Below, in pieces: positions 32,118 through 49,417 of a DNA stretch of 51,438 bases. The notes beneath the pieces were generated by a model. That model was given only the letters and a program-made list of their open reading frames with translations, did no database searches and had not been told where the DNA came from. A program made the translations under genes and the position numbers. The DNA lies in sequence record PZ754631.1; one strand, 5' to 3'. This DNA is from a phage. Positions within the stretch are counted from its first letter, which is position 1, and every line of letters starts with the position of its first letter.

Positions 32118-32151
32118 AACACCAGTTCAACAAGCAACAGGTAATTAAGAA

Positions 32152-33158: not shown

Positions 33159-33190
33159 TATTTCATCAAAACGAACAAGAGGAAAATAAA

Positions 33191-36580: not shown

Positions 36581-36582
36581 AA

Positions 36583-38166: not shown

Positions 38167-38193
38167 TGGTGATAACTCCTTTTTGATGCGGCA

Positions 38194-38239
38194 ATAATAC
38201 CGCACCAATGCTACCCGCATTTAACAAAAAATGCTATTT
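38194..38239 (-). promoter_or_regulatory. early promoter cassette (minus) driving P-loop ATPase gene
   Basis: minus strand AAATAGCATTTTTTGTTAAAT, ~19 bp, TATTAT. Confidence 0.45.
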
Positions 38240-38455
38240 GATCCGCTCTATGCTAACTAAGATTTTTTCTGGTTCCCTTGCGCTATTGCAATGCGCGGTT
38301 ACAGAATCAGCAAAATCAAAGTAAAGTGATTTGTGATATGATAATCCAATCAGCCACCCAACCATTGTTTTCTTTATTGGCCTGACTATATCGCCAGGCT
38401 TGAAGGTTTTTGTTGCTGAATGAGTCACCTTATAGCGATATTCAGCCTTGATCAC
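38234..38455 (-). CDS. hypothetical protein
   Basis: 73 aa; stop TAG embedded in promoter motif. Confidence 0.5.
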   Translation of the reverse strand: MIKAEYRYKVTHSATKTFKPGDIVRPIKKTMVGWLIGLSYHKSLYFDFADSVTAHCNSAREPEKILVSIERIK

Positions 38456-38838
38456 TTATACATAGCCTCAAACAAATGACATCCACCAGCGGAAAATCCA
38501 ACTTCTTCGCGGTATAGCGTCCAGCGGTCGCCAGCCTCATCAAACACATAACCAGCAACAGCGCCAAGCGCGCGGCCTTGCTCAATCTGGTAGCGCTTTC
38601 CTTCTTTGAAATGCTTTTTGCACGGAATCTTGTGATCTACAAAGGTGCATTTAATTGTTTTTGTTTTGATATGACGATAGTCAGACTCAACAGCGTTTTG
38701 CCACTTGCTACCCTTTGTAATGTTCTTTACCTGGAATTGCTCCAACTCGATCACATCATTGCTACCAGCAATTTTTTCGTATACAGCTTTATAACGACCG
38801 TTCATCAAAACGTTGGTTTTATTGCAGATAACTTTCAT
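38452..38838 (-). CDS. hypothetical protein
   Basis: 128 aa; RBS AAGGAG; preceded by promoter module. Confidence 0.55.
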   Translation of the reverse strand: MKVICNKTNVLMNGRYKAVYEKIAGSNDVIELEQFQVKNITKGSKWQNAVESDYRHIKTKTIKCTFVDHKIPCKKHFKEGKRYQIEQGRALGAVAGYVFDEAGDRWTLYREEVGFSAGGCHLFEAMYK

Positions 38839-38869
38839 CGTTTATTTCTCCTTTCGTTTCGGTGAGTTG

Positions 38870-38915
38870 ATTATGCCAGGCTTTTACACCTGGCTTTTAA
38901 CAAAAAGTGCTATTT
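38870..38915 (-). promoter_or_regulatory. early promoter cassette (minus)
   Basis: minus strand AAATAGCACTTTTTGTTAAAA, 19 bp hairpin (GCCAGG..CCTGGC), CATAAT. Confidence 0.5.
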
Positions 38916-39620
38916 TGCGTTTGCTTCAAAGACTGCGCGAGCAAAACCGCGCGGAGTGAGGGAGCGGATCATCTTTGTGCGAGATGATTTTCCGCCAGTT
39001 TTGGCCCAACCTGGATTATCCTTGTCGCCATCTTTAGGAATGATTGTTGCGCGCGGAGGAATAACAAATCCGTTTCCAGTCCAAAGGCATGTTTTCTTAA
39101 AGTACCGATCCCGCGCCGGAATAATATCAGGGAAGTCGGGATGCTTATCATCTTCCGGCAGATAGCCAGCATAATCGCACGGATGGAACGTATAATCAGG
39201 CTTTCGCCATAACGTTGACAACTTGCCAACCGGATTTTCGATCATGTAAGGAACACCGAAATAATCAGCTATATCAGCCGCGATCCTGCAAGTGTCGGCG
39301 GCCTCATCCTGGAATGATGGATTCTCAAGGCGCTTTTTGGCCCAATGGCGAGATCCGCTATTTGCAAGGTCGGTGCACGGCGGAAATGCCATAATAAAGT
39401 CAGGAATACCCCATTCCTCACAGCGCGCGCGGTGGTAAAATATTTCATCAATCCAGACGTTAACGTATTCGATATTCTCATGCTGTATGCGCACTGAGTG
39501 GTAATCACCGTGATCAGCATCATCGTAATTAAAGCAAATGCATTTATATCCAGCACCAGCCCAATCTTTAACGGCTTTACCAGATCCATCAAACAAAGAG
39601 AAAATTAAACCCTTATACAT
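38910..39620 (-). CDS. compact C5-cytosine methyltransferase-like protein
   Basis: motif I-like LFDGSG, motif IV-like FPPCTDLANSG (Cys present, Q replaced by T), motif VI-like ENPVG, motif IX-like LTPRGFARAV; 236 aa, no obvious target-recognition domain. Confidence 0.55.
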   Translation of the reverse strand: MYKGLIFSLFDGSGKAVKDWAGAGYKCICFNYDDADHGDYHSVRIQHENIEYVNVWIDEIFYHRARCEEWGIPDFIMAFPPCTDLANSGSRHWAKKRLENPSFQDEAADTCRIAADIADYFGVPYMIENPVGKLSTLWRKPDYTFHPCDYAGYLPEDDKHPDFPDIIPARDRYFKKTCLWTGNGFVIPPRATIIPKDGDKDNPGWAKTGGKSSRTKMIRSLTPRGFARAVFEANAK

Positions 39621-39629
39621 TTCATCACC

Positions 39630-39854
39630 TCAAAACGGAAAGCATCGTGGGCAGTTAGGATCGAAGTTGCAGCCGCAATCATTTACAATCATGGTTGGAT
39701 CTGCAAATGCAGCGCCGCATTCGTGATCCATATCCATTTCACCAAGCGCATCATCAAGCTTTCTGATCTTATATGCAACTTCAAGAGCGGCCTCTTTATT
39801 CAGCCCAGCATCTTCCGCTTTTTGCAGTCGCTCAAAAAATCCGTCCTGGCTCAT
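39630..39854 (-). CDS. hypothetical Cys-rich small protein
   Basis: 74 aa; C-terminal CGCNFDPNCPRC cluster. Confidence 0.5.
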   Translation of the reverse strand: MSQDGFFERLQKAEDAGLNKEAALEVAYKIRKLDDALGEMDMDHECGAAFADPTMIVNDCGCNFDPNCPRCFPF

Positions 39855-39973
39855 TTCATAAACTCCTTCATAAACTCCTTGATAACAATCAGAATAATAG
39901 CAATACCAGCAGTGACAACTAAAAGACCAACAAGGCCAATCATCACACCAAATAAAATATCAAGAAATTTCAT
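39851..39973 (-). CDS. small single-TM membrane peptide (~40 aa)
   Basis: below track threshold; RBS AGGTGA; hydrophobic core GVMIGLVGLLVVTAGIAIILIVI; TGA overlaps next ATG. Confidence 0.4.
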   Translation of the reverse strand: MKFLDILFGVMIGLVGLLVVTAGIAIILIVIKEFMKEFMK

Positions 39974-40022
39974 CATTATTATCACCTTTATTTAAAGGGA
40001 GGCGAAACCTCCCGTTTATTAA

Positions 40023-40250
40023 TTAGATAGCCTTCCAGCTTTCAATAAACATGCTGTTTTCTTCCAGCAGTTTAATCAATTCTTCGCGCGTATATTTGCG
40101 AATTTTACTACCTGGATGTGAGCCAACAACAAACACACCTTTACCACTCGTGATGGTTAACTGGTTGATTCCGCAAGATTTATCCATCTTGATGGCGACG
40201 CGGTGATGTGCATCAACAGTGTGCATTATGTTAGTGACTTTAGCTTTCAT
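40023..40250 (-). CDS. hypothetical protein
   Basis: 75 aa from MKAKV (RBS GAGGA, promoter module upstream); followed by hairpin. Confidence 0.5.
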   Translation of the reverse strand: MKAKVTNIMHTVDAHHRVAIKMDKSCGINQLTITSGKGVFVVGSHPGSKIRKYTREELIKLLEENSMFIESWKAI

Positions 40251-40281
40251 TATGCGATCCTCGTTCGTTGTCGATGCGCTT

Positions 40282-40326
40282 AATATACCAATCAGGCGCA
40301 TACCGGTTTTAACAAAAAGTGCTATT
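40282..40326 (-). promoter_or_regulatory. early promoter cassette (minus)
   Basis: minus strand motif, 19 bp, TATATT. Confidence 0.5.
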
Positions 40327-40612
40327 CAACAACAGATCCAGTTAAAGAGATAAGTGCTCTTGTGATCTTGTGTCTGCGATACTGCCGCGCAACAACCGGA
40401 AGATTTTCACCGCTTTGATGACCGAAGCAGATCGGCAACTCACCTTCAAGAGAGCGGAAGCCGCCAAATTCAAGATCCCGCACTGGCTTTGAGCGCCACG
40501 CTTCAATAAATCCGCGTTCGTCACGCGTGATATAGCGGTATATGTTCGGGAGGGGCAATTGTATCCCCTCAAAATCCACGGTATCGGTATAGCTGTAAAA
40601 CTTAGAACTCAT
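40322..40612 (-). CDS. hypothetical protein
   Basis: 96 aa; stop TAG in promoter motif. Confidence 0.5.
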   Translation of the reverse strand: MSSKFYSYTDTVDFEGIQLPLPNIYRYITRDERGFIEAWRSKPVRDLEFGGFRSLEGELPICFGHQSGENLPVVARQYRRHKITRALISLTGSVVE

Positions 40613-40754
40613 AGTCAACAACTCCAAATTCGTTTACGATTTGCGCCTTATAGAAGCCGCCATTTTTCGCCAGGTTATAACATGCCGCTACAGTTTCAAA
40701 TTCGCGCACTTCCGGCTGGCTGTTTTCGTGTTCCCAGGTAATCAGAGTAACCAT
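40602..40754 (-). CDS. hypothetical small protein
   Basis: 50 aa from MVTL; track start rejected because it covers the promoter -10. Confidence 0.4.
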   Translation of the reverse strand: MVTLITWEHENSQPEVREFETVAACYNLAKNGGFYKAQIVNEFGVVDYEF

Positions 40755-40787
40755 TTTCAAATCCTCGCATTCGTTTTCGATGTGTGT

Positions 40788-40831
40788 AATGTACAGGAAC
40801 ACGAGGATTGAGTTTTAACAAAAAGTGCTAT
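40788..40831 (-). promoter_or_regulatory. early promoter cassette (minus)
   Basis: minus strand motif, 19 bp, TACATT. Confidence 0.5.
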
Positions 40832-41098
40832 TTAGTCCAGGAATTCGATTTCACGTTCTCCAGTTGAAGGATTTACAAGCCAGAATCCGAGCGGTTCGCC
40901 GTAAATACCGCCATAGAATCCAAGCGCCGCCAGATCTTCACCGTTAACAAAGGCCAGATTCCCGCTACGGCTTACGTGCGACACGTTGACGATAGCCGGA
41001 AAGGTGCGTTTTTTAAAATCAGGCCGCAGGGCGTAACATCCATTGTTAAGCAGTCGTGCTTTGCGTTTTACTGGAATAGGTGCATTGATTCGCGCCAT
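40832..41098 (-). CDS. hypothetical protein
   Basis: 88 aa; RBS AAGGAGA. Confidence 0.55.
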   Translation of the reverse strand: MARINAPIPVKRKARLLNNGCYALRPDFKKRTFPAIVNVSHVSRSGNLAFVNGEDLAALGFYGGIYGEPLGFWLVNPSTGEREIEFLD

Positions 41099-41113
41099 CT
41101 TTATTTCTCCTTA

Positions 41114-41386
41114 TTAATCATCTTCAAGCGGATCGTAATCATCAACCACAAAATCAAGCGGGGAATAGTTATCAACCTCAAAGTCAATACATTTTGCCTG
41201 TTCATCACAGTTAGATGTTTCAATCAAATATTCACCGTAATGATCTGGATCATCAAGCCTGGTAACAATGACGCGCGTCATGTGTCGCCCACATCCGTAA
41301 CGATCTGCAAGGTGATCTCGCTGTACGCTAAATCCGTTTTTATATGCGCGTTCAAGCGCGTTTCGTAATGCTTCGTGCTTAACCAT
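41114..41386 (-). CDS. hypothetical protein with acidic C-terminus
   Basis: 90 aa from MVKHEAL; C-terminal DFVVDDYDPLEDD. Confidence 0.5.
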   Translation of the reverse strand: MVKHEALRNALERAYKNGFSVQRDHLADRYGCGRHMTRVIVTRLDDPDHYGEYLIETSNCDEQAKCIDFEVDNYSPLDFVVDDYDPLEDD

Positions 41387-41618
41387 GTTTAACGATCTCC
41401 AGAACATCACAGGACTCGTTAATGAATTTAGCCATACGTTTATCATCACCAACAGGGATTAGCGCATTACACTCGCGTTTGCTACTGAATACCGTCACTT
41501 TATGAAACGATGCGAACGGCATCGACGGGAACTCGACTGTTTTCGTCAAGATCCGCAATCCAATCTTTTTGGCCCTTACCTGGGCCTCTGCAAGTTCAAA
41601 ATCCACTTCATCAATCAT
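41379..41618 (-). CDS. hypothetical protein
   Basis: 79 aa; ATGA coupling to upstream gene. Confidence 0.5.
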   Translation of the reverse strand: MIDEVDFELAEAQVRAKKIGLRILTKTVEFPSMPFASFHKVTVFSSKRECNALIPVGDDKRMAKFINESCDVLEIVKHG

Positions 41619-41887
41619 TTCTTGATCTCCTCAGCAATAAACTTCAGGACTTTGCGCAAAAACACTTCATTATTGATGGTCGCTGGCAATTCCTCTTTCA
41701 CTTCTTGCGGCAGATAGATATTGCCGTGCCAGGTTAAGCAATCGTAATTGATGCGATAAGAGCAAAGCCACTCGCAATCGTTATCCGCTTCCCAAATGCA
41801 GAGTTGCAGAACATCGCCAAAATTCTCAACAGTCAGGTCCAGACCATGACGCTTGGCGAAATTGAAAGTGGTTTTGCTGATGTTCAT
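41615..41887 (-). CDS. hypothetical protein (first gene of leftward early arm)
   Basis: 90 aa; RBS AGGAGAAAG; promoter module immediately upstream. Confidence 0.55.
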   Translation of the reverse strand: MNISKTTFNFAKRHGLDLTVENFGDVLQLCIWEADNDCEWLCSYRINYDCLTWHGNIYLPQEVKEELPATINNEVFLRKVLKFIAEEIKK

Positions 41888-41925
41888 TTGCTTTCTCCTG
41901 ATGGGTATCTCGTTTCGATGTGTCT

Positions 41926-41971
41926 AATGTACCCGATCAGGATGATTCAGTTTTAACAAAAAGTGCTATTT
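41926..41971 (-). promoter_or_regulatory. early promoter cassette (minus), first of leftward arm
   Basis: minus strand motif, 19 bp, TACATT; RBS and ATG of gene 41887. Confidence 0.5.
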
Positions 41972-41982
41972 CTCAACTGGCG

Positions 41983-42024
41983 ATTATTCCAACTATTCCA
42001 TTAATCAGGAATAACAAGAATAAC
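41983..42024. promoter_or_regulatory. operator-like nested inverted repeat in non-coding hub
   Basis: ATTATTCC-AAC-TATTCC-ATTAATCA-GGAATA-ACAA-GAATAAC; half-sites TATTCC/GGAATA duplicated around an ATTAAT centre. Confidence 0.4.
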
Positions 42025-42249
42025 TCATTCGCGATCACCTGGATTGTGAGACTTTGAGTTTGGTCAATTTTAATCAAGTGATTAACTTTTTGTGTGGAGG
42101 GGATAGAGAAACGCGGTCCTCTTGCATCCTTTCCGGCATTCCTGGCGCGCAACATGTTCATTATGTTTCCAGCCGTTCACGCAAATAAGCCTCCGCAGTT
42201 CTTCTACGTTTCATGCCGTCATGCACACAAAAGAAACAAAGTAAAATCT

Positions 42250-42325
42250 ATATAAATACACATTAAATCAATAAGTTAGTTATATATGTATTTATATTTG
42301 TTTCTTATTGTTCTTGTTGTGTGAT
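42250..42325 (+). repeat. ~75 bp AT-rich element with IHF-consensus core, copy 2
   Basis: same 16-mer at 42265-42280 and ~80% identity over flanks to copy 1, same orientation. Confidence 0.6.
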
Positions 42326-42569
42326 GGTTATTGGTATATGTTGCGATTTTTGTTTTGGTGGATATTGATTGTTTATTGTTCGATTTGGTTGGTGATCATG
42401 ATTGCTCATGGTCGCGTATGATTCTTGATGTATTTATGTATATATCCGCGAAAATTCGTGAACAGCCACACAGCCAAAAAACATGACGAGGATTCTTTTA
42501 AAATCATGCGCTTAAGTGTGAATTTTGTTTCCGCGCAATCTCCACACGTATAGCAAACAATTAGAACGC

Positions 42570-42599
42570 TTGACATAGACACGACGCGGTGGCAACATT
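42570..42599 (+). promoter_or_regulatory. candidate rightward early promoter (consensus -35)
   Basis: perfect TTGACA followed 17-18 bp later by weak AACATT; ~40 nt upstream of gene 42638. Confidence 0.35.
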
Positions 42600-42637
42600 G
42601 CAATCACCAACAAACAAGGCAAATAGGAGTTACACTC

Positions 42638-43096
42638 ATGACTATGACAAGTAAAGAATTTTGCGATATGTTGCGAGTCAATGCAGCCTCACTAGCTAAC
42701 GGTGATGTTAGCGAACTGCAAATCAAGGAGCTTGACTTGCAATGTAATATTGCGCCGGAAGACTTGAGGAAAATTAACGCCTCATACATCAGAACGATTA
42801 TGAATCGAACGCCGGAGGTGAAGGCTGTTGGCGCGGTGAAGGTTGAACGCGTTCGAGGTGATGCGGATATTCCTGATTGTTATCGCGTAACCATTAACAA
42901 GAATCCAAAGCGCCGCTTGCTGACAGATGAAGAATTGCCAAAACTTGAAAGCAAGTGGCGAGCAAAGTTTATTGCTCAACTGCTTAAAACACAGCCGCGA
43001 ATCAGCGATCTGGAAGGTGAGCGCCTGGAAGGTGCAGCAATCGCACTTGAGCGAATGAATGAAATGCTTAACGAGATGGTAAAGATGGAGGATTAA
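42638..43096 (+). CDS. hypothetical protein (first gene of rightward early arm)
   Basis: 152 aa; RBS AGGAG; downstream of consensus TTGACA box. Confidence 0.55.
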   Translation: MTMTSKEFCDMLRVNAASLANGDVSELQIKELDLQCNIAPEDLRKINASYIRTIMNRTPEVKAVGAVKVERVRGDADIPDCYRVTINKNPKRRLLTDEELPKLESKWRAKFIAQLLKTQPRISDLEGERLEGAAIALERMNEMLNEMVKMED

Positions 43097-43098
43097 TT

Positions 43099-43362
43099 AT
43101 GGTTATGATGAAAATTCGCAAAGCAACAGATGATTTCATTCGCAGTAATGCGGAAAGCGGTCGCCTGTATGTTGCATTCGTGGAACGCAAGAGAAAGCGC
43201 GGAAAGATCGTTGCGACTGAGCGGTTATTCAAGATGAAGCCGAGAAATGAATGCGAATGCAAAAAGGATTCCGGTTTTTACTTCGGATGCTGTTGCAGCA
43301 CGATAGAAAACGCGCGAATGCTTATAGATGAAGGAAAAGTATACTTCAATCCGGCAGAATAG
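43099..43362 (+). CDS. hypothetical Cys-rich protein
   Basis: 87 aa; CECKK...GCCCS cluster; stop TAG embedded in promoter motif. Confidence 0.5.
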   Translation: MVMMKIRKATDDFIRSNAESGRLYVAFVERKRKRGKIVATERLFKMKPRNECECKKDSGFYFGCCCSTIENARMLIDEGKVYFNPAE

Positions 43363-43402
43363 CACTTTTTGTTAAAACGCCAGGCGCAAAGCCTGGCATA
43401 AT
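43358..43402 (+). promoter_or_regulatory. early promoter cassette (stop codon embedded)
   Basis: AATAGCACTTTTTGTTAAAAC, 19 bp hairpin GCCAGG..CCTGGC, TG-n-CATAAT. Confidence 0.55.
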
Positions 43403-43434
43403 AGCCTCATCGAAACGAGATTGAGGAAAACAAA

Positions 43435-43620
43435 ATGGCACGTCGCATCACCAAAGACCTTAAAGTTCTGAACAAAGAAAACGTAGTTAAAATCCTGGTC
43501 ATCTGGGGATACAACGAAGAAACAGCAAAGCAGAAGGTAGAGGCAGGTTATGACCTGGCTGTAAAAGCAATGCCAAACGACGACGCCAAAGGCATTGCAA
43601 ACTATGTAGCTTTCTTTTAA
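43435..43620 (+). CDS. hypothetical protein
   Basis: 61 aa; promoter module and RBS GAGGA upstream. Confidence 0.5.
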   Translation: MARRITKDLKVLNKENVVKILVIWGYNEETAKQKVEAGYDLAVKAMPNDDAKGIANYVAFF

Positions 43621-43635
43621 TTAGCAGGTGAATAA

Positions 43636-43821
43636 ATGAAAACGAAATTAGTCCATAAATCAGAAATCAAGATCGGCGATACTGTAATTCACAACGGCGA
43701 GCTTAGAACTGTTGGCAAAGAGTCAATAAGCCACGATGAATTTATGGGGATCTTGTTGTTCGGTGACTCTTATCGGTTGGGCTATAAAATGGTTGAGCTT
43801 GTGGAAGAGGTCAAATTCTAA
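43636..43821 (+). CDS. hypothetical protein
   Basis: 61 aa; RBS AGGTGA. Confidence 0.5.
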   Translation: MKTKLVHKSEIKIGDTVIHNGELRTVGKESISHDEFMGILLFGDSYRLGYKMVELVEEVKF

Positions 43822-43865
43822 ATAGCACTTTTTGTTAAAACGCCAATCTGAAAACCTGGCATAAT
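43820..43865 (+). promoter_or_regulatory. early promoter cassette
   Basis: AATAGCACTTTTTGTTAAAAC, 19 bp, CATAAT. Confidence 0.5.
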
Positions 43866-43906
43866 GCATCACATAGGGCGGCACGGGCCGCAGTAACGAG
43901 GATAAT

Positions 43907-44092: not shown

Positions 44093-44301
44093 TGAACTAC
44101 ATCCCAAAATGCCTCAGGGGGACACCTAAGGCAAAAACGAAGCCGCGCAGGCAGGCGATAAAGGAAGCCCAAGTGGCGGCGTTCAATCAGGCAATTAGCG
44201 TCGTGCTGGACAAGTGCCGAATTGAAAAATCTGAAAGAATGAAAGCGAACATGTACGCCGCAGTAAGCGAAATAGCGCGACTGCGAGACAGTGTTAAATA
44301 G
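44089..44301 (+). CDS. hypothetical basic protein
   Basis: 70 aa; coupled start; followed by GC hairpin. Confidence 0.5.
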   Translation: MMNYIPKCLRGTPKAKTKPRRQAIKEAQVAAFNQAISVVLDKCRIEKSERMKANMYAAVSEIARLRDSVK

Positions 44302-44356
44302 CCAACCATGCCCCACTTCACGTGGGGCCAATAACTAATAACAGAGGTAAAATCCT

Positions 44357-44402
44357 GAATAGCATTTTTTGTTAAAACTCAAAAACGATAACCAGGCATA
44401 AT
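44357..44402 (+). promoter_or_regulatory. early promoter cassette
   Basis: GAATAGCATTTTTTGTTAAAAC, 19 bp, CATAAT. Confidence 0.5.
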
Positions 44403-44456
44403 AAATCACATAGGGCGGCACGGCGTCGCCCACAAAACCAATCAGGAGAAAGCACC

Positions 44457-45362
44457 ATGTTAAAACTTGCTAACATTAAATTCCCGATCACTTTCCAATC
44501 TCGCGGCGTTGGTCACTTCATGTTTTCAGACGAAAATACATGCACTAAGTTTAACGAATACGGCAAGCCTGATGTTTCAACAATGGAGATTGAGCACTTC
44601 ATTGATGCGCATAACAGGCACTACAACTCACTCAAAGACTACGGCTATGCAATGCCAGGCTACACTTGCTTGCACTATAAGCCATACAGGGGCCAGGTGT
44701 TACCAGTTCGCTCACCAGAACGCGCAGAGATTCCGGCGGTCGAGATGAAAACCTGCGACTATAAAAAATTGTGGTGCTTAAGCGTGGATAACATCAAGTA
44801 TCCGATCGTATTCCACACTGTTGGTTACTCAACGATTCGTTATACGTCACCAGACAACGGCGTTTATAGCGATGGTCAGAAATCAGATTTTAAAGTTGAT
44901 TTCTTTGTTGATGCTCATAACAAATTCAATCCGCACAACGAAAAGGATAAAGTGTATTACGTGGAAGATATTACTAAACACTTGTTTGGAGAAACTCCAT
45001 TCGGCGGCGGGAAGACGTCTATTGCTCAGGCTATAGATAACGTTGCGCGACGTATTGGTGAGCAGATTCACAGTCAAACAATTAAGGCGTCCGGAGGCTG
45101 GCGTATTGATAAGAGCGGCATTGCCTGTCAAGAAATCGTAACGCAGGGCGCGATTGAAGACATGCCGCTTGGCGCCACGCTAAAAGGCGTCCAAATTGCG
45201 GATGGCACATGGTTTGAATTAACGGCTAAGCCAAAGACGATCGAGATTCATGATGACGTTGTTATTCTTCTTCTTCACTATGGCAGCGCGAAAAACCGGA
45301 CTGTTGCAGGTGAGATAAGCATCAAGCGCGGAACGATGGTTAAGTGGAACGTCAAAGTGTAA
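44457..45362 (+). CDS. hypothetical protein with internal tandem domain duplication
   Basis: 301 aa; N-terminal and central segments are homologous (NIKFPITF...FIDAHNRHYN vs NIKYPIVF...FVDAHNKFNP). Confidence 0.6.
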   Translation: MLKLANIKFPITFQSRGVGHFMFSDENTCTKFNEYGKPDVSTMEIEHFIDAHNRHYNSLKDYGYAMPGYTCLHYKPYRGQVLPVRSPERAEIPAVEMKTCDYKKLWCLSVDNIKYPIVFHTVGYSTIRYTSPDNGVYSDGQKSDFKVDFFVDAHNKFNPHNEKDKVYYVEDITKHLFGETPFGGGKTSIAQAIDNVARRIGEQIHSQTIKASGGWRIDKSGIACQEIVTQGAIEDMPLGATLKGVQIADGTWFELTAKPKTIEIHDDVVILLLHYGSAKNRTVAGEISIKRGTMVKWNVKV

Positions 45363-45405
45363 ATAGCACGAATTGTTAAAACTCAAATGTGGGGTCAGGT
45401 ATAAT
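45361..45405 (+). promoter_or_regulatory. early promoter cassette
   Basis: AAATAGCACGAATTGTTAAAAC, 18 bp, TATAAT. Confidence 0.5.
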
Positions 45406-45434
45406 GGCCTCACTTTCAACGAAGGGGATAAACG

Positions 45435-45680
45435 ATGATTATTGAACAGCATTTTCTTTGCGTTAAGAGCAATAGACCATTCTTCACACCTGGCAAGGTG
45501 TACCAGGGCAAGAAGAATGGCAAGGACGGTCATTCTTATCACGTCCATTGCAATAACGGTAGCAAGTTCTACCTGAATGGATGCGGCGGCACTAAGATTA
45601 TGGCATTTGATCACGTAATTGCTGAATTTGAGCAAATCACCGACGCTGAATTTGAGGAAGTGAAAGATGGAAACAAATAA
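45435..45680 (+). CDS. hypothetical protein
   Basis: 81 aa; promoter module and RBS upstream. Confidence 0.5.
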   Translation: MIIEQHFLCVKSNRPFFTPGKVYQGKKNGKDGHSYHVHCNNGSKFYLNGCGGTKIMAFDHVIAEFEQITDAEFEEVKDGNK

Positions 45681-45888
45681 TCGCGTTAAGCACAAGTTTA
45701 TTGATAATCATGGCGATGCACTTGAGGTATATAAGTTTGGCGATCGCGTGTTTATTGATGGCACGTTTGAAGGTGGGCGCAGGCCGGATTTTAGGTCGAT
45801 ACTCACTATTGACCAGGTGCGCAAGCTGGCGGATAAGTTAAATGATCTGGCAGATGAAATCGAATACAAGCAAATTCATTTTAATTGA
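45667..45888 (+). CDS. hypothetical protein
   Basis: 73 aa; overlapping start. Confidence 0.5.
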   Translation: METNNRVKHKFIDNHGDALEVYKFGDRVFIDGTFEGGRRPDFRSILTIDQVRKLADKLNDLADEIEYKQIHFN

Positions 45889-45899
45889 TAGGTTTGATA

Positions 45900-46541
45900 A
45901 TGAAAAAATACGAATTTGAACTTTTGGGCAGCAAATACCATTTTTCCACGAGCAAGCCGATTGTTATCGTTGACCTGGACGGAACGTTATCAGACGGAAC
46001 GCATCGCTTGCACCTGCTTCCGACAGAAGATTTGCACCTTACAGAAAGTTGGTCTGAGTTCAATAAGGCGGCTGTTGGCGATTCGCCGATTAAGAGCACG
46101 GTTGCAGTGGTTAACGGATTGTGGATGTCGGGATTTGCTATCGTTATCCTGACCGGACGCAGCGATGAAGTGATGGCGGATACCTGCAAATGGCTTAACG
46201 AAAACGGCATCAAGCACGATGCGTTAATCATGCGCCGCAAGGAAGACAACCGAAAAGACACAATCATCAAAGAAGAAGTCTTGCGCGCTATTGGACTGGA
46301 AAACATTGTGTGCGCTTTTGATGATTCGCCAAACGTGGTTAAGCACTTCCGAAGCCTGGGAATCACAACCTATCAGGTCACGGAATACGACAAGCCACAC
46401 GCTCACCTGAAATCTCACGGCGTGGATGAATTGAAGCCAAAAATCGAATGCGAAGGAGAGCACTGTTTTAGTGTGGTTGATGGTAAATGTTTGCGTTGCG
46501 GCGTGGAGGAATTGAAAAATGATGCAATCAACAGTGATTAA
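45900..46541 (+). CDS. HAD-family phosphatase with C-terminal zinc ribbon (PNK 3'-phosphatase-like)
   Basis: HAD motif I VIVDLDGTL; C-terminal CEGEHC...CLRCG. Confidence 0.6.
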   Translation: MKKYEFELLGSKYHFSTSKPIVIVDLDGTLSDGTHRLHLLPTEDLHLTESWSEFNKAAVGDSPIKSTVAVVNGLWMSGFAIVILTGRSDEVMADTCKWLNENGIKHDALIMRRKEDNRKDTIIKEEVLRAIGLENIVCAFDDSPNVVKHFRSLGITTYQVTEYDKPHAHLKSHGVDELKPKIECEGEHCFSVVDGKCLRCGVEELKNDAINSD

Positions 46542-46698
46542 ATTCCTGGGTAGTGACTGCGAGGAAGTCAACGAATGTTTCACCGCTGGCAAGCGTTATC
46601 ATGCCGATGTGTCGAGTGCTGGCAATTACTTTGTGTACGACGACCACGGCAGCACCTGGGCCATTGATCCAGATGATGATGATTTTTCGGTTGAATAG
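46519..46698 (+). CDS. hypothetical small acidic protein (59 aa)
   Basis: below track threshold; RBS GGAGG; stop TAG embedded in promoter motif, as for other early genes. Confidence 0.45.
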   Translation: MMQSTVIKFLGSDCEEVNECFTAGKRYHADVSSAGNYFVYDDHGSTWAIDPDDDDFSVE

Positions 46699-46738
46699 CA
46701 CTTTTTGCAAAAACAGATTATCGGGCTTGCGGTATAGT
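46695..46738 (+). promoter_or_regulatory. early promoter cassette
   Basis: AATAGCACTTTTTGCAAAAAC, 19 bp, TATAGT. Confidence 0.5.
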
Positions 46739-46769
46739 AAGCCCATCAACAACAAACGAGGATTAAATC

Positions 46770-47033
46770 ATGGTTAATAAAGTTGAGTTTTTCAAAGCGG
46801 TAGACAAGATTGACGGCGAGCCAAGTTTCTTTGCTATCCATTCCATTGACCGAGAAGACGTTGCATACAACGTGATTAATAAAAAAGGTATATCAAAACT
46901 TAGTGACCTGGTTGGTTATATTGTGGCAAACGGGAAATGTGCATGGCCCGATTCTCCACGAGAGCCGCGCCGCCGCGACATGCAAAATCCAGTTCTGCTT
47001 TACACGCTGGTAATTGAAGGAGTCAACAAATGA
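46770..47033 (+). CDS. hypothetical protein
   Basis: 87 aa; promoter module and RBS upstream. Confidence 0.5.
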   Translation: MVNKVEFFKAVDKIDGEPSFFAIHSIDREDVAYNVINKKGISKLSDLVGYIVANGKCAWPDSPREPRRRDMQNPVLLYTLVIEGVNK

Positions 47034-47215
47034 TTTGGTTACTTGTATTTTTAGTGGTTTTCTTTTATATTTCAGGATTATTCATCTTCCGCGCATTGGT
47101 TAAAGAGTGTGATTGCACTGATAAAGATCAGCCTCTTGTTCTGATATTCTGGTTTGTGTGGTTTTGGGTGGCGTTTTACCAGATTGTGCGGGATGAAAGC
47201 GGCTTTAAGTGGTGA
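47030..47215 (+). CDS. small membrane protein (2 TM)
   Basis: 61 aa, two hydrophobic segments; ATGA coupling. Confidence 0.5.
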   Translation: MIWLLVFLVVFFYISGLFIFRALVKECDCTDKDQPLVLIFWFVWFWVAFYQIVRDESGFKW

Positions 47216-47270
47216 TTCTTACTATAGCGCATTCATGCAGTGCGCTATGTTGATATAACAACAGGAGATC

Positions 47271-47408
47271 ATGAAGATGCGAAACTTCGAAAAAATCGTA
47301 ACCAAGAAGAAGCGCTACAGCTATGACGAGCACCGCGAGATGAATCAACGCTATCGCAAAAAGCGCCAGCGCCCAGGTAAAAACTCAAGTCGATATGGAG
47401 GCAACTAA
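47271..47408 (+). CDS. small basic protein (45 aa)
   Basis: below track threshold; RBS AGGAGA; Lys/Arg-rich; stop adjacent to kinase start. Confidence 0.4.
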   Translation: MKMRNFEKIVTKKKRYSYDEHREMNQRYRKKRQRPGKNSSRYGGN

Positions 47409-47409
47409 T

Positions 47410-48000
47410 ATGAAACGCGACATTATCATTCTTAACGGACCGCCAGGAGTTGGCAAAGATACGCTTGCGGCATACTTAACGGGTCATCGTTACGCAGCGG
47501 TTAAAGCGTCATTTAAACAGCCTATGTTCGATATTGCATTCTCCATGCTTGGCGTTTTCCGATATGACGAGTTCATTGATCTGTATAACGACCGTGAGCA
47601 GAAAGAAAAGCCTCAAGCAATCTTGCAAGGTAAGTCTCCGCGACAATTCATGATCTGGATTAGCGAAGAAGTCATGAAGCCAGCTTTTGGCGAGCAATAT
47701 TTTGGGAATCGCATGGTTGAGCAAGTACACGAGATGTACAGAGATTTAGCTGTTGTAATTAGTGATGGCGGATTCCCTGAAGAAATCAAGCCGCTCGTTA
47801 AGGCGGGCCATGAAGTTCACATTTGCCGACTGCATCGCGAAGGATTCACGTTTGATGGCGATTCGCGAAACTATATTGACCTGAGCGGATACCATCACCG
47901 CGTCAAGCATTACGACTTCACAATGACTGATGGCGAGCCAGAAAAGACTGTTGACGAGATCATCAAAACTGTCCAGTGGAAACACATTAAGATCAAATAG
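47410..48000 (+). CDS. P-loop kinase (dNMP kinase-like)
   Basis: N-terminal IIILNGPPGVGKDT P-loop resembling phage deoxynucleoside monophosphate kinases; RBS GGAGG. Confidence 0.6.
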   Translation: MKRDIIILNGPPGVGKDTLAAYLTGHRYAAVKASFKQPMFDIAFSMLGVFRYDEFIDLYNDREQKEKPQAILQGKSPRQFMIWISEEVMKPAFGEQYFGNRMVEQVHEMYRDLAVVISDGGFPEEIKPLVKAGHEVHICRLHREGFTFDGDSRNYIDLSGYHHRVKHYDFTMTDGEPEKTVDEIIKTVQWKHIKIK

Positions 48001-48040
48001 CACGAATTGCTAAAAGCGGGGCGCAATGCCTCGCTATAAT
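47995..48040 (+). promoter_or_regulatory. early promoter cassette
   Basis: AAATAGCACGAATTGCTAAAAG, 19 bp hairpin, TATAAT. Confidence 0.5.
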
Positions 48041-48071
48041 GCAAACACCAATCAACGAGAGGGCTTGGAAC

Positions 48072-48473
48072 ATGTTAGAACTTAACGACATTCGCGTTGG
48101 AACAAAATTTCGCGTAACCTGGGCAGATAAATATTGCGGCGTTAGCAAGGGCCAGGTTGTTACTGTGGATAGTATTTATCGCGGATGCAGCAAAGACTTT
48201 CGCCGCCCACGCATCAAGAATGGCTATATCATTACTCGCCGTTTTGGATTTGATCATTATTGCGTAGTGTCAACTCAAGGCGCTTTGATTGAGCTTAAGC
48301 GAATAAGCGATCATCGCGGCTGTCATGTTAAGACAATGAAAACACCATTTCAGCGAGCGCGATACGATGCGCGACGGATGCGCCGACTTGCTCGAAATGC
48401 GATCAAGTTCAAAAATCCTGGCAGTAATTTTTACAGAATGTACAAAGGGATTGCGCGAAATGCTGGGAAATAA
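48072..48473 (+). CDS. hypothetical basic protein
   Basis: 133 aa from MLELND; track start at 48039 rejected because it overlaps the promoter -10. Confidence 0.5.
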   Translation: MLELNDIRVGTKFRVTWADKYCGVSKGQVVTVDSIYRGCSKDFRRPRIKNGYIITRRFGFDHYCVVSTQGALIELKRISDHRGCHVKTMKTPFQRARYDARRMRRLARNAIKFKNPGSNFYRMYKGIARNAGK

Positions 48474-48591
48474 CAACAACGCAACCAATCCAAAGCCGCC
48501 ATTTGATTTTCATGAAATCATGATTGTGTTATTCTTGATTCTCTTAGTTGTTTATTCAGTGAGGGCCGCAATATGGTTTTTAATGCACTAA
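48460..48591 (+). CDS. small membrane peptide (43 aa)
   Basis: internal ATG overlapping upstream stop; hydrophobic IMIVLFLILLVVYSV segment; weak RBS. Confidence 0.35.
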   Translation: MLGNNNNATNPKPPFDFHEIMIVLFLILLVVYSVRAAIWFLMH

Positions 48592-48836
48592 AACGAATCT
48601 TTAAACCTGAATACCGGATCGTTGCTTGCACAGAATGCAAGATTTATTATCTGCAACGCCGCCGCGTTATTAGTGGGGATTGGGAATATCTGACGGATGA
48701 TGCTTTCGGCTTTTGGGCTATGGAGTTCAATAGCTACAGCGAAGCGCGTGAGTACGCTAAAAAGTTGCACAAGTTCAGACCTTACAAGCTACGTTTGCTG
48801 GTTGTCAAAAAATGCGATGTGTGGGATCACGAATGA
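48573..48836 (+). CDS. hypothetical protein
   Basis: 87 aa ORF in early arm. Confidence 0.45.
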   Translation: MVFNALKRIFKPEYRIVACTECKIYYLQRRRVISGDWEYLTDDAFGFWAMEFNSYSEAREYAKKLHKFRPYKLRLLVVKKCDVWDHE

Positions 48837-49012
48837 AAAGAGTAATTATCATTTTTATTGCCCTTATCGCTGGTTGCTACCTGGCATATAATTATAGCGG
48901 CATTGTTGAGTCAATCGGCGGGTTGATTATCTTCATGGCTGGCGGGTATGCTGGCTATTGTGATGGATTCGAAAACGGAAAGCGTTACATGCTGACCGGA
49001 AAAAAGAAGTAA
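48833..49012 (+). CDS. small membrane protein
   Basis: 59 aa from MKRVIII; two hydrophobic segments; ATGA coupling. Confidence 0.45.
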   Translation: MKRVIIIFIALIAGCYLAYNYSGIVESIGGLIIFMAGGYAGYCDGFENGKRYMLTGKKK

Positions 49013-49054
49013 TGTTAACCGCGCCGCTTAGGTGGCGCTAAAAGGAGGAAACAA

Positions 49055-49342
49055 ATGGCTAAAAGCAATCGTAAAATGTTGATTAACGCATTCGAAAAGG
49101 CAGCGCTTGAGCGTGGTTGGAATGACTCATTTCACACAGCAAACTGTATCCGCCGTTACGGATTCAAGAATTGCCGATCCTGGGCGCGTCAAATGGCTTC
49201 ATGGTATGATCTTGATGCGCATTACCTTGATATGGATTGCGCCCTGGTTGAAATGATTGAGCAGGCCGCATTAGAGGATCGACCATTAACGCAATCTGAT
49301 TTTGACGATTTTGTGCGCGATGAAATCTATTACATGAGCTAA
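49055..49342 (+). CDS. hypothetical protein
   Basis: 95 aa; RBS AGGAGG; stop adjacent to promoter motif. Confidence 0.5.
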   Translation: MAKSNRKMLINAFEKAALERGWNDSFHTANCIRRYGFKNCRSWARQMASWYDLDAHYLDMDCALVEMIEQAALEDRPLTQSDFDDFVRDEIYYMS

Positions 49343-49385
49343 TAGCACTTTTTGTTAAAACTTCCGCGAGGGCATTTGTTAAAGT
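49341..49385 (+). promoter_or_regulatory. early promoter cassette (weaker -10)
   Basis: AATAGCACTTTTTGTTAAAAC, 19 bp, TAAAGT. Confidence 0.4.
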
Positions 49386-49417
49386 GTCCTCATTGAAGCG
49401 AAACAGAGGAAATAAAA

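Follow-up and report, generated by a model that had tools for sequence, protein, structure and literature searches.

Direct repeats of 21 nt, with the consensus aaATAGCACnnnTTGnTAAAA, have been described for phage TLS, where 18 intergenic copies lie along the direction of transcription, with start codons ~76 nt downstream, and form TTT, GAA and AAA subgroups (German et al. 2024, PMC11447400). The authors note it for T1, Rtp and Rogue1 as well; as to its role, which they leave open, they consider a stoperator, an enhancer or a UP element. A fixed register with a -10 and start point, and an identity with the marbox, are not reported there for TLS. A further point of comparison is the micF promoter of E. 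coli, a single chromosomal promoter that makes a small RNA from a degenerate box. It depends, as a class II promoter, on Rob, MarA, SoxS or RamA. For RamA, with a site at about -41 (PMC8811837), and for Rob this is established by experiment and structure, and in the Rob-micF complex Rob touches -47G and -45A and holds sigma region 4 off the -35 (PMC9178005). Class II promoters have no recognisable -35 (PMC10268841). The Rob and RamA transcription-activation complexes at micF have both been solved by cryo-EM.

Phages offer other precedents. T4 middle promoters combine a MotA box with a sigma-70 -10, and sigma is appropriated by MotA and AsiA; the box, TGCTTtA, is centred at -30 and read by phage-encoded MotA, and AsiA remodels sigma. 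The strong, UP-element-assisted early promoters of T5 and T4 carry conserved A/T-containing DNA upstream of the core, as degenerate A/T tracts at the UP consensus position of -59 to -38 that are read by alpha. The stoperators of mycobacteriophage L5 are asymmetric, oriented, multi-copy intergenic sites that serve as repressor roadblocks in a temperate phage, in no set relation to a -10.

The DNA analysed here, a stretch of 51,438 nt (PZ754631.1) that we call the window, is from a T1-like coliphage (Drexlerviridae) with ~92% identity to aaroes and pSf-1, and its repeat is the same element as that of TLS. The repeat itself was thus already known; reading it as a marbox appears to be new. A preliminary description had proposed about twenty stereotyped promoter cassettes, and we count 20, with 12 of them within 38194-49385 and 8 beyond (at 6342, 10102, 20923, 22430, 29060, 29549, 32073 and 33114). 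A cassette runs from the 21-mer AATAGCACTTTTTGTTAAAAC over a spacer to a TATAAT-like -10 and on to a conserved C/A start point; then come a ~25-nt leader with a Shine-Dalgarno sequence, and ATG. At ≤3 mismatches the 21-mer is found 16 times in the window, where 100 shuffles give an expectation of 0, and at ≤5 mismatches 18 times; searching with the generic marbox pattern and with a weight matrix derived from host sites added two more diverged copies, 29060-29080 (minus strand, primase) and 22430-22450 (plus strand). Of the 20 cassettes, 16 have 18 bp between the 21-mer and the -10, and the other 4 have 17 bp. We consider it rather likely that the cassettes are all sigma-70 promoters belonging to the class II MarA/SoxS/Rob type, also termed marbox or robbox promoters. 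The cassettes, with spacer length, -10 and, except for the two antisense copies, the gene that each is taken to drive, and one promoter candidate that has no box, are as follows.

43358..43409, plus strand: cassette; marbox 43358-43378, 18-bp spacer, TG-extended CATAAT, predicted +1 near 43409; spacer hairpin GCCAGGC/GCCTGGC; upstream ORF stops at the TAG within the box; ORF 43435
43821..43872, plus strand: cassette; 18 bp, CATAAT; 5' stem-loop GCGGC/GCCGC opens the leader; upstream TAA overlaps box position 1; ORF 43907
44358..44409, plus strand: cassette, GCAT variant; 18 bp, CATAAT; 5' stem-loop in the 48-nt leader; 301-aa ORF at 44457
45362..45412, plus strand: cassette whose box centre is the GAA variant; 17 bp, TATAAT; upstream TAA overlaps box position 1; ORF 45435
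46694..46745, plus strand: cassette with core GCACTTTTTGCAAAA; 18 bp, TATAGT; hairpin GGGCTT/AAGCCC surrounds the -10; upstream ORF stops at the TAG within the box; ORFs from 46770 through the P-loop NTPase gene
47996..48047, plus strand: cassette, GAA variant; 18 bp, TATAAT; NTPase gene stops at the box TAG; ORF with likely start 48072
49341..49392, plus strand: cassette; 18 bp, TG-extended TAAAGT; ORF 49418
41919..41970, minus strand: first cassette of the left arm; 18 bp, TACATT; ORF start 41887
40781..40832, minus strand: cassette; 18 bp, TACATT; ORF start 40754
40275..40326, minus strand: cassette; 18 bp, TG-extended TATATT; inverted repeat ATGCGC/GCGCAT surrounds the -10; upstream ORF stops at the box TAG; ORF start 40250
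38863..38914, minus strand: cassette; 18 bp, CATAAT; spacer hairpin CCAGG/CCTGG; Dcm-like methylase gene stops at the box TAG; ORF 38838
38187..38238, minus strand: cassette, GCAT variant; 18 bp, TATTAT; helicase gene, start 38166
33114..33165, plus strand: cassette; 18 bp, CATAAT; spacer hairpin GCCCGG/CGGGC; ORF 33191
32073..32124, plus strand: cassette; 18 bp, CATAAT; VRR-NUC gene stops at the box TAG; Dam-like methylase gene (32152)
29549..29599, plus strand: DNA helicase cassette; 17 bp, TATTAT (29587-29592), overlapping the opposite-strand -10 (29593-29588) of the canonical TTGAGT-16-TATAAT promoter of the divergent Cro-like HTH gene; ATG 29626
29029..29080, minus strand: diverged primase cassette GAAAGCACTAATTGCTAAAAA; 18 bp, TATCAT; ATG 29008
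22430..22481, plus strand: diverged cassette AACAGCACAAATAGCTAAACA; 17 bp, TATAAT; inverted repeat GCGGTG/CACCGC surrounds the -10; upstream TAA overlaps the box start; ORF 22513
20893..20943, minus strand: Cor-like lipoprotein cassette; 17 bp, TATAGT; ATG 20868
10071..10122, minus strand: antisense cassette in the late operon; 18 bp, TATCAT; 12 nt upstream of the tape-measure chaperone ATG (10135, plus strand) and facing the back of the major-tail-gene terminator (10041-10066)
6311..6362, minus strand: antisense box ahead of the gene for the major capsid protein (ATG 6408, plus strand); promoter activity doubtful because the -10 is poor (TATGCG)
42565..42594, plus strand: candidate promoter without a box, TTGACA-17-(TGg)CAACAT, ahead of the first two genes of the right arm, DUF7174 (42638-43096) and an 87-aa ORF; counterpart of TLS promoter P01

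The lipoprotein and helicase genes are preceded by a cassette, as had been claimed; the VRR-NUC and ATPase genes, named with them, are not, and it is their stops that lie in the cassette of the next gene. Two copies of the box (6342-6362 and 10102-10122) run antisense into the late operon.

Are these sequences promoters, or repeats that happen to lie between genes? A larger sample, drawn from T1-like contigs in IMG/VR, comprises 292 unique cassettes of many phages. In it the spacer sequence is uninformative, and nAnnnT stands at box position 40 in 226 (77%). Among these 226 register-matching cassettes, -14 is G in 84% and the full TG is present in 47%, -1 is C in 69% and +1 is A in 83%; in the larger sample the median distance from +1 to ATG is 25 nt. 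The earlier view that the cassettes are promoter modules and not plain repeats is borne out by this fixed -10 register, the -14 G, the C/A start point and the unconserved spacer. The same signature speaks against the suggestion that the boxes do not activate at all, and are instead oriented roadblock or repressor sites of a stoperator-like kind, decoys for MarA, SoxS and Rob, or signals acting at the RNA level in read-through transcripts. They are indeed oriented, intergenic and multi-copy, as are the L5 stoperators (a likeness suggested in PMC11447400), the two antisense copies have no gene to drive, hairpins adjoining the box would occur in read-through RNA, and, with twenty high-affinity sites, every genome copy would titrate the activators regardless. 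Unlike L5 stoperators, however, the cassettes stand in a fixed relation to the -10, and the phage is virulent, with no repressor or integrase module in the annotations of its relatives; an Rfam search gave no family match; and a decoy role would be compatible with promoter function and secondary to it. We regard a non-activating role as very improbable.

What, then, might read the box? Positions 2-21 form a near-perfect marbox, the site of E. coli MarA, SoxS and Rob. The E. coli definition, gcannwwntgnnaaa (PMC12052159), is matched exactly 20 times in the window against 1.9 +/- 1.35 expected, and 19 of the 20 are cassette boxes. With a weight matrix built from 73 Salmonella MarA/SoxS/Rob/RamA ChIP-seq sites (PMC10268841), the phage boxes score 14.9-18.1 bits, whereas the host sites have a median of 11.2 and a maximum of 17.9; 22 sites in the window reach at least 14 bits, versus 0.65 in shuffles. 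The core GCACTTTTTGCAAAA of the 46694 cassette is identical to a Salmonella RamA/SoxS ChIP-seq site. About 15 box positions are near-invariant and kept across divergent phages, with GCAC, TTG and TAAA invariant and the T-tract swappable for GAA or AAA, and in 81 boxes from four phages the variation falls at positions 8, 9-11, 15 and 20-21, where the marbox consensus is degenerate. A looser search, for a marbox core at ≤1 mismatch with a -10 at 17-19 bp, gave 23 candidates in the window, 20 in T1, 21 in Rtp and 17 in Klebsiella phage N141 (Webervirus), and the spacers of the T1, Rtp and N141 candidates are unrelated. The hosts of these three phages are all Enterobacteriaceae, which carry MarA/SoxS/Rob-type activators (PMC10268841).

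The geometry of the box is also that of class II: it lies in forward orientation, in place of the -35, centred near -40. In E. coli K-12 micF, ACAGCACTGAATGTCAAAAC is followed after 18 bp by TAGAAT, with +1 eight nt on; the phage counterpart is ATAGCACTTTTTGTTAAAAC, 18 bp and a TATAAT-like -10. Spacing and orientation are the same and 16 of 20 bases are identical, both share the GCAC and AAAAC ends and lack a usable -35, and with +1 set at the conserved A, phage G5 becomes -47 and A7 becomes -45. The phage differs from micF in having ~20 near-invariant copies, which serve protein-coding early and replication genes, in reading TAAA at the B site where micF has CAAA, and in that many of its cassettes add a hairpin and an embedded stop codon. 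Sequence match, orientation, spacing, absence of a -35 and conservation in four phage lineages are all direct observations.

Could sigma-70 RNA polymerase alone read the cassettes, with no need of an activator? The box would then be a UP-like element plus a weak -35 (TTAAAA or TAAAAC at 18-19 bp), helped by the -14 G and the good -10. The -10 is near consensus, and with G at -14 in 84% and TG in 47% one might think of extended -10 promoters, which can do without a -35; a UP element was also raised by the TLS authors (PMC11447400), and a UP-like element with an atypical -35 in the preliminary description. That idea fares poorly, in that GCAC, TTG and TAAA are invariant and include G/C, while the T-tract gives way freely to GAA or AAA, the opposite of what recognition of minor-groove A/T tracts by the alpha C-terminal domain predicts. 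Unlike UP elements, which lie at -59 to -38, the box occupies -51 to -31 and so overlaps the -35. At 16-18 bp spacing no TTGACA-like -35 is found in the cassettes, with 0.6-2.3 of 6 bases matching, and over the usable spacings the mean match is 0.6-3.2 of 6. Some 15 near-invariant positions exceed the constraint usual for sigma and alpha contacts. Reading by sigma-70 polymerase unaided is in our view improbable. In the early region as a whole, sigma-70 promoter-like sites are depleted (17 versus 30.9 +/- 5.5 expected), and TLS has only three canonical promoters (PMC11447400).

A site for a host factor, one of the alternatives offered earlier, is the best supported and can now be specified as a class II marbox for MarA, SoxS or Rob. 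Because the box matches the marbox and sits as it does in micF, the phage probably switches on its early genes through these host proteins. The 21-mer would substitute for the -35 hexamer, and a monomeric host activator of the AraC family would bind there: Rob, MarA or SoxS in E. coli, with RamA as a further candidate in Klebsiella and Salmonella. One helix-turn-helix would read GCAC (-47 to -44) and the second TAAA (-36 to -33), and the bound activator would bring in RNA polymerase by way of sigma region 4 and the alpha C-terminal domain. The TATAAT-like -10, 18 bp downstream, would be read by sigma region 2, with region 3 contacting the -14 G, and the transcript would begin at the conserved A, 7 nt past the -10, with the ribosome-binding site in its ~25-nt leader. 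Binding, activation, the position of the start site and the choice among paralogous activators are what we infer; in the searchable literature we found no binding, transcription or start-site data for any T1-like phage.

In a Keio single-gene screen with phage LL5, whose identity to TLS is >90%, all the genes recovered were receptor, LPS or chaperone genes; rob, marA and soxS were not among them (PMC7229145). No single activator is therefore essential, and that single deletions do not block a TLS-like phage would suit polymerase acting alone; redundancy among MarA, SoxS and Rob, or a basal activity due to the good -10 and the -14 G, could also account for the outcome. Cells not under stress contain little MarA or SoxS, and most of their Rob is sequestered (PMC10268841), an odd fit for a factor required at the outset of a lytic infection.

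Might the phage supply its own reader? Box positions 2-4 and 12-13 are conserved beyond what the host consensus requires, which could be caused by a different, phage-encoded reader of the same DNA. Such a DNA-binding protein, made from a box-less canonical promoter in the manner of T4 MotA at middle promoters, would activate or time the cassettes, and the likeness to the marbox would be coincidence or mimicry. One candidate is the Cro-like HTH protein (29063-29536), which is family-wide (831 Drexlerviridae records) and whose gene owns the near-consensus TTGAGT-16-TATAAT promoter interlocked with the helicase cassette (TLS counterpart, P57). The other is the winged-helix-like DUF7174 protein, the first gene of the right arm, behind the TTGACA promoter; its AlphaFold model (pLDDT 80) predicts a helix-strand-helix-helix-strand-strand core with weak winged-helix matches. 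The cassettes resemble T4 middle promoters in having an activator box in place of the -35, a -10 read by host sigma-70 and many copies. In contrast to T4, the centre of the box lies near -40 and its sequence matches the site of a host activator, and no phage-encoded reader was found: tblastn with MarA detected no AraC-type protein in the phage (best E-value 0.13), and a Pfam scan of 20 window proteins found no AraC-type domain. An asymmetric site with two blocks one helical turn apart fits a monomeric two-HTH protein and not a Cro-type dimer, and the PDB matches of the Cro-like protein are Cro proteins. DUF7174 is not detectable in T1, which has 20 cassettes, and only weakly so in Rtp (E 1e-8, 24% identity). 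The box does not vary between phages that share only 55-70% protein identity, and the chance that an unrelated site would fit the 15-mer marbox at each of its ten constrained positions (two W and eight fixed bases), in the right orientation and -10 register, is ~1e-5. We think a phage-encoded reader unlikely. The proteins put forward for gel-shift assays, 29063-29536 and 33701-34816, are the Cro-like single-HTH protein and an exonuclease with an N-terminal HTH; the choice of these two is not supported. The asymmetric two-block site points to a bipartite AraC-type fold, which both lack.

The stop codon of the preceding gene does lie in the box, as had been noticed: seven upstream ORFs stop at the TAG of positions 3-5, five at a TAA overlapping positions -1 to 2, and one at a TAA at positions 16-18; at the 22430 cassette the TAA overlaps box position 1. 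The box shuts two of three reading frames, so upstream genes extend right up to the next promoter, and its TAG/TAA is a packing feature. The GC hairpins are likewise real. A DNA hairpin with dG ≤ -4 kcal/mol lies between box and start point in 163 of the 226 register-matching cassettes, and 30-mers with dG ≤ -5 make up 26%, versus 1% in downstream controls. Fusion of termination with re-initiation of the next transcript holds for the few cassettes in which a hairpin is followed by a T-run and fails as a general rule; nor could the TAG bring it about, since a stop codon ends translation and not transcription, and terminator-like sites in 36-51.4 kb are no commoner than in shuffles (17 versus 16.3). 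In the window, a true terminator was seen to overlap the primase cassette alone, and elsewhere a few others. The primase -10 is placed within the loop of this intrinsic terminator (stem CCUGGCA/UGUCAGG, then a U-run), which ends the transcript of the Cro-like HTH gene.

Twenty copies of one promoter cassette occur in the window, a number that agrees with the family of about 20 given in the preliminary description, and 12 of them lie within 38194-49385, the interval it covered. A search with AATAGCACTTTTTGTTAAAAC finds 16 copies at no more than 3 mismatches, where none is expected, and 18 at no more than 5; two further, diverged boxes lie at 29060-29080 (minus strand, before the primase gene) and 22430-22450 (plus strand). 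Downstream of the box, as we call the conserved 21-mer, the layout is constant: a spacer of 18 bp in 16 cassettes and 17 bp in four, a TATAAT-like hexamer, and 6-7 nt on a C/A dinucleotide whose A is the predicted start (+1). The leader is A-rich and has a Shine-Dalgarno sequence, with the ATG 21-48 nt past the predicted start and typically 77 nt from the start of the box. Eighteen copies are aimed at a gene and two are antisense, like DR7, a direct repeat of the related phage TLS. For three genes the start of the longest ORF (48039, 40301 and 38220) lies ahead of the point where the cassette is predicted to begin transcription; the real start codons are probably 48072, 40250 and 38166, the last of which agrees with the annotation of phage JakobBernoulli. 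Because the cassettes mark predicted starts, they can be used to correct start-codon calls in T1-like phages.

Does this anatomy hold in a larger sample? Scanning IMG/VR for ATAGCACNNNTTGNTAAAA gave 292 unique cassettes, nearly all on T1-like contigs of 39-53 kb. The box columns of this set are fixed by the collection pattern, and the downstream columns are unbiased. The spacer columns carry about 0-0.2 bits, and the -10 hexamer has base frequencies of T64, A83, T67, A55, A51 and T82 percent. The pattern nAnnnT stands at box position 40 in 226 of the 292, with G at -14 in 84% of these and in 76% of all. Of the 226, 47% have the full TG, 69% have C at -1 and 83% have A at +1; the ATG follows +1 at a median of 25 nt. 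Such a pattern marks a promoter whose -10 is read by sigma-70, and it confirms the order of box, fixed spacer, -10, leader and ATG first noticed in the window.

The genomic setting is that of a well-populated phage group. By megablast, the 38-50 kb segment matches 318 phage records, best at 91-93% identity to Escherichia phages aaroes, vB_EcoP_06, PGN590, JakobBernoulli and herni and to Shigella phage pSf-1. JakobBernoulli (Drexlerviridae, Tempevirinae, Hanrivervirus) is collinear with the window, which is laid out as follows:

1-20 kb, plus strand: structural genes
21-36 kb: recombination, replication and lysis genes
36-42 kb, minus strand: small-gene arm, the left of two divergent arms
42.6-51.4 kb, plus strand: small-gene arm, the right of the two

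A 670-bp non-coding region separates the divergent arms. An imperfect inverted repeat of 40 nt, AT-rich and 73% complementary with 20 nt between its arms, lies there at 42224-42323 along with more AT-rich repeats, and could be a replication origin or an immediate-early control region. Database labels in this group deserve some care: "Campylobacter phage A15a" (GenBank MG065638.1, 22.7 kb) and 19 other "Campylobacter" records match this coliphage, with a 100% identical Cro-like protein, and they are probably T1-like coliphage contamination or mislabelled.

What reads the box? Its positions 2-21, A-T-A-G-C-A-C-(T/G)-(T/A)-(T/A)-T-T-G-(T/C)-T-A-A-A-A-C, fit the binding site (marbox) of MarA, SoxS and Rob, the paralogous AraC-family activators of E. 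coli. They match 13 of the 14 specified positions of the 20-mer marbox consensus AYnGCACnnWnnRYYAAAYn, reportedly given by Martin et al. in 1999. The 15-mer core gcannwwntgnnaaa, derived from ChIP in E. coli (PMC12052159), is present without mismatch in 19 of the 20 cassette boxes and with one mismatch in the twentieth. Exact core matches in the window number 20, against 1.9 +/- 1.35 in shuffles, and 19 of them are cassette boxes. On a host weight matrix built from 73 Salmonella MarA/SoxS/Rob/RamA ChIP-seq sites (PMC10268841, Table 1), the boxes score 14.9-18.1 bits; the median for the host sites is 11.2, and the best of them reaches 17.9. The boxes take 19 of the 20 highest-scoring 15-mers of the window, in which 22 sites reach at least 14 bits where 0.65 would be expected. 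One core, GCACTTTTTGCAAAA at 46698, agrees in every base with a Salmonella site to which RamA and SoxS bind. Across 81 boxes from four phages, variation falls at positions 8, 9-11, 15 and 20-21, just where the host consensus is degenerate. Of the options raised in the preliminary description, a site for a host factor is the best supported.

The arrangement of the cassette also resembles a particular kind of host promoter. What defines a class II marbox promoter is a box in forward orientation that overlaps the -35 (PMC12052159, PMC10268841); such promoters have no recognizable -35 of their own (PMC10268841). In the phage the box is forward in all 20 cassettes, GCAC lying farther from the -10 and AAA nearer to it, just as in micF, and it overlaps the -35 position, the core being centered at -40 when the predicted +1 is the conserved A; the box of rfaY P1 is listed at -41. 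The cassettes likewise combine a sigma-70 -10 with no -35, matches to TTGACA averaging 0.6, 1.6 and 2.3 of 6 at spacers of 16, 17 and 18 bp. In sequence, orientation, position and missing -35 the cassettes look like members of the class, and we infer that binding and activation would go with membership.

The closest comparison is micF, a textbook class II promoter of the MarA/SoxS/Rob regulon. In E. coli K-12 the micF promoter consists of ACAGCACTGAATGTCAAAAC, 18 bp and TAGAAT, with +1 eight nt later; 16 of 20 bases of the phage box are identical to it, and orientation and spacing are the same. The RamA site on micF lies at about -41 (PMC8811837). In the cryo-EM structure of Rob with RNA polymerase, Rob reads both GCAC, the "A site", and CAAA, the "B site" overlapping the -35; it contacts -47G and -45A and holds sigma region 4 off the -35 (PMC9178005). 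With +1 at the conserved A, the predicted start, G5 and A7 of the phage box fall at exactly -47 and -45.

Could the motif be explained by something more familiar? A UP-like element had been suggested, and UP elements are degenerate A/T-rich tracts at about -59 to -38, without required G/C, that serve as sites for the alpha-CTD. The box spans -51 to -31, its G5, C6, C8 and G14 are invariant or nearly so, and its T-tract is swapped for GAA or AAA in about half of the copies, so that the suggestion is not supported. The atypical -35 offered along with it fares no better: no TTGACA-like hexamer stands at 16-18 bp in the cassettes, and TTGYTA, which averages 4.0 of 6 matches as a -35, is 22 bp from the -10 and hence too far. 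Sigma-54 promoters have TGGCAC-N5-TTGCW at -24/-12 and no -10 hexamer. The box reads TAGCAC-N3-TTGYT, with a spacing of 3 not 5 and AG for GG, and a sigma-70 -10 follows 18 bp on. By eye none of sigma-28, sigma-32 and sigma-E fits, and the -10 varies in the fashion of TATAAT. In T4 middle promoters a MotA box, (a/t)(a/t)(a/t)TGCTTtA, is centered at -30 and is read by phage-encoded MotA with AsiA; the present box differs in sequence and in position, with its center near -40, and no MotA or AsiA is annotated in the relatives. Stoperators are repressor sites that have an orientation and are dispersed through transcription units with no set position relative to promoter elements, and a stoperator roadblock does not account for a fixed 17-18 bp register to the -10 and a conserved start point. 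Dcm sites (CCWGG) abut the -10 in 5 window cassettes, yet occupy that position in only 8 of the 292 and so are not general. No Rfam families were found in the window. Canonical sigma-70 promoter-like sites, of the TTGACA-16/18-TATAAT type, are depleted in the early arms, 36000-51438 (17, against 30.9 +/- 5.5 in shuffles).

The repeat itself is known. Phage TLS has a 21-nt direct repeat with consensus aaATAGCACnnnTTGnTAAAA (German et al. 2024, PMC11447400), intergenic, along the direction of transcription and about 76 nt before the start codon; subgroups TTT, GAA and AAA were distinguished, and the repeat is also found in T1, Rtp and Rogue1 (PMC11447400). The window boxes match this consensus and have the same placement. 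Only three canonical sigma-70 promoters were reported for TLS, and the authors suggest stoperators, enhancer sites or UP elements, posing function as an open question; a fixed -10 register goes unmentioned there (PMC11447400). In the searchable literature we found no link between the marbox or MarA/SoxS/Rob and the repeats of T1-like phages, and no start-site or transcriptome data for Drexlerviridae. With both the repeat and the class II marbox promoter class known, it is the assignment of the one to the other that appears to be new.

Is the reader supplied by the host or by the phage? A looser search, for the marbox core at no more than 1 mismatch plus a -10 at 17-19 bp, gives 20 candidate cassettes in T1 (Tunavirinae), 21 in Rtp (Braunvirinae) and 17 in Klebsiella phage KPN N141 (Webervirus), of the same architecture and with unrelated spacers. 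Among the hosts listed for the family, Enterobacteriaceae predominate (Klebsiella, Escherichia, Shigella, Salmonella, Citrobacter, Enterobacter, Cronobacter); marA, soxS and rob are present in many enteric bacteria, and ramA also in some (PMC10268841). The box is invariant though phage proteins diverge to 55-70% identity, and a conserved host protein would most simply explain this. Phage-encoded readers remain rivals, namely a Cro-like protein, an exonuclease and DUF7174. The first two were the helix-turn-helix (HTH) proteins put forward earlier as candidates, and both do have the motif. The Cro-like protein (29063-29536), conserved in 831 phage records, has a single HTH, and the exonuclease (33701-34816) an N-terminal one; such proteins suit an asymmetric two-block site less well than would a reader of AraC type. 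DUF7174 (42638-43096) is encoded by the first gene behind a box-less TTGACA promoter at 42565 and was not detected in T1; it too suits the two-block site less well. Its AlphaFold model (pLDDT 80) has weak winged-helix similarities with no PDB match below E = 0.03, which does not make it a hidden AraC fold. A tblastn search with E. coli MarA, from the K-12 genome, for a MarA-like phage protein reached an E-value of 0.13 at best, for a match within the ORF at 49055-49342, where there is no Pfam hit, and Pfam and PHROGs found no AraC-type domain in the 20 early or regulatory proteins scanned.

We therefore return to the host activators. Sequence identity, orientation, spacing and conservation are observed features of the cassettes. 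From them we infer binding, activation, start sites and the choice of paralogue, and the most likely mechanism runs as follows. A monomer of host MarA, SoxS or Rob, or of RamA, would occupy the box at -50 to -31 and recruit sigma-70 RNA polymerase through class II contacts; the -10 and the G at -14 would position the polymerase, and transcription would begin at the conserved A. Rob, made constitutively and with the highest DNA affinity, is the obvious candidate in unstressed cells. Much Rob is sequestered until freed by bile salts or dipyridyl (PMC10268841). The main counter-evidence is a Keio screen of the TLS-like phage LL5, in which rob, marA and soxS were not recovered (PMC7229145); no single activator, then, is essential. 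Redundancy of the activators or basal strength of the promoters could explain this result.

What would follow for the phages? If the class II marbox reading is right, most early and replication transcription in a family of virulent phages would depend on a stress regulon of the host, which would be unusual. Klebsiella Webervirus and E. coli T1-like phages serve in phage therapy; on this reading their early expression might rise in mar-, sox- or ram-derepressed multidrug-resistant strains, or with bile or salicylate inducers. Phage genomes might be sponges for activators of the MarA/SoxS/Rob type, and the 52-bp cassettes would offer short activator-responsive promoters that are ready to use. 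It is conceivable, though we would not count on it, that the virulent Drexlerviridae as a whole, with more than 800 sequenced genomes, have handed recognition of their early and replication promoters to host MarA/SoxS/Rob/RamA. In that event bile salts, salicylate, oxidants and antibiotics would all modulate infection, as would the marR, soxR and ramR mutations behind multidrug resistance in clinical strains. Some 20 high-affinity boxes per replicating genome copy would titrate the activators and blunt the efflux and stress response of the host. A class II marbox identity would give a concrete answer about the repeat, open to cheap experimental testing.

The box also contains stop codons of upstream genes. 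TAG at box positions 3-5 ends seven upstream ORFs, bearing out the claim that it is often the real stop of the preceding gene; TAA overlapping positions -1 to 2 ends five more. At the 22430 cassette the preceding ORF has a TAA that overlaps position 1, one upstream ORF stops at TAA in positions 16-18, and another at TGA four nt upstream. Two of three reading frames are closed by the box. The A at position 4, found in 74 of the 81 boxes from four phages, creates the TAG at a position where the marbox consensus has an unconstrained n, so that stop embedding looks like a selected packing device.

Are transcript termination and re-initiation fused as well, as the preliminary description held? A stop codon ends translation, and terminator-like sites are not enriched in 36-51.4 kb (17, against 16.3 in shuffles), so the claim does not stand in general. 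The primase cassette is the exception. At 28995-29060 (minus strand) its -10 lies in the loop of a strong intrinsic terminator hairpin (stem CCUGGCA/UGUCAGG, RNA dG -20.3 kcal/mol, z -3.05) followed by a U-run, which ends the transcript of the Cro-like gene. Because transcripts from the embedded promoter lack the 5' arm, this terminator acts on read-through RNA only, and here termination and the next transcript start truly overlap. TLS has the same arrangement at its terminator T57 and repeat DR10.

Within 29537-29625 lies a near-consensus promoter, TTGAGT-16-TATAAT, that belongs to the Cro-like gene itself (minus strand, ATG 29536). Its -10 (29593-29588) overlaps that of the divergent helicase cassette (29587-29592), and its 5' UTR crosses the box. 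The pair may be a bidirectional or toggle arrangement, and P57/DR11 of TLS looks the same.

The short GC hairpin noted in the spacer is statistically real. A DNA hairpin of dG <= -4 kcal/mol lies between box and start point in 163 of the 226 cassettes, and spacer GC is 52% against 41% in downstream controls. A column-pair analysis showed that the six complementary pairs with the strongest enrichment lie in a single unbroken helix (columns 28-33 with 46-51) that joins the spacer (-24 to -19) to the discriminator (-6 to -1) and encloses the -10. At least five of the six pairs are present in 27% of 202 unique cassettes. Permuting the arms lowers the figure to 9.6% (at most 15.8% in any of 1000 permutations), and sliding the register gives 3-10%. 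This register-fixed inverted repeat covaries between cassettes (window examples at 40275-40326, 46694-46745 and 22430-22481). Since the arm sequences differ among cassettes, it is structure that is conserved and not a protein site. A T-run follows the hairpin in few cases. As guesses at its role, we offer stabilization of the upstream mRNA 3' end or shielding of the promoter from read-through. A separate hairpin is seen at 43872-43895 and 44409-44432, where the leaders of adjoining cassettes both begin CAUAGGGCGGCACGG and fold to a 5'-proximal stem-loop (dG -9.7 and -14.1 kcal/mol, z about -1.9), which may be a 5' stabilizer or a common regulatory hairpin.

The two antisense cassettes lie in the late operon:

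10071-10122, minus strand: antisense cassette just upstream of the tape-measure chaperone gene (ATG 10135), with a good -10, TATCAT
6311-6362, minus strand: antisense cassette just upstream of the major capsid gene (ATG 6408), with a poor -10

The first faces the back of the major-tail-gene terminator (10041-10066), and its firing could produce a short antisense RNA or transcriptional interference. Equivalent antisense copies are found in T1 (18851 and 15087), JakobBernoulli and TLS (DR7). The copy that follows the major tail gene of Rtp has sense orientation and precedes an inserted gene.
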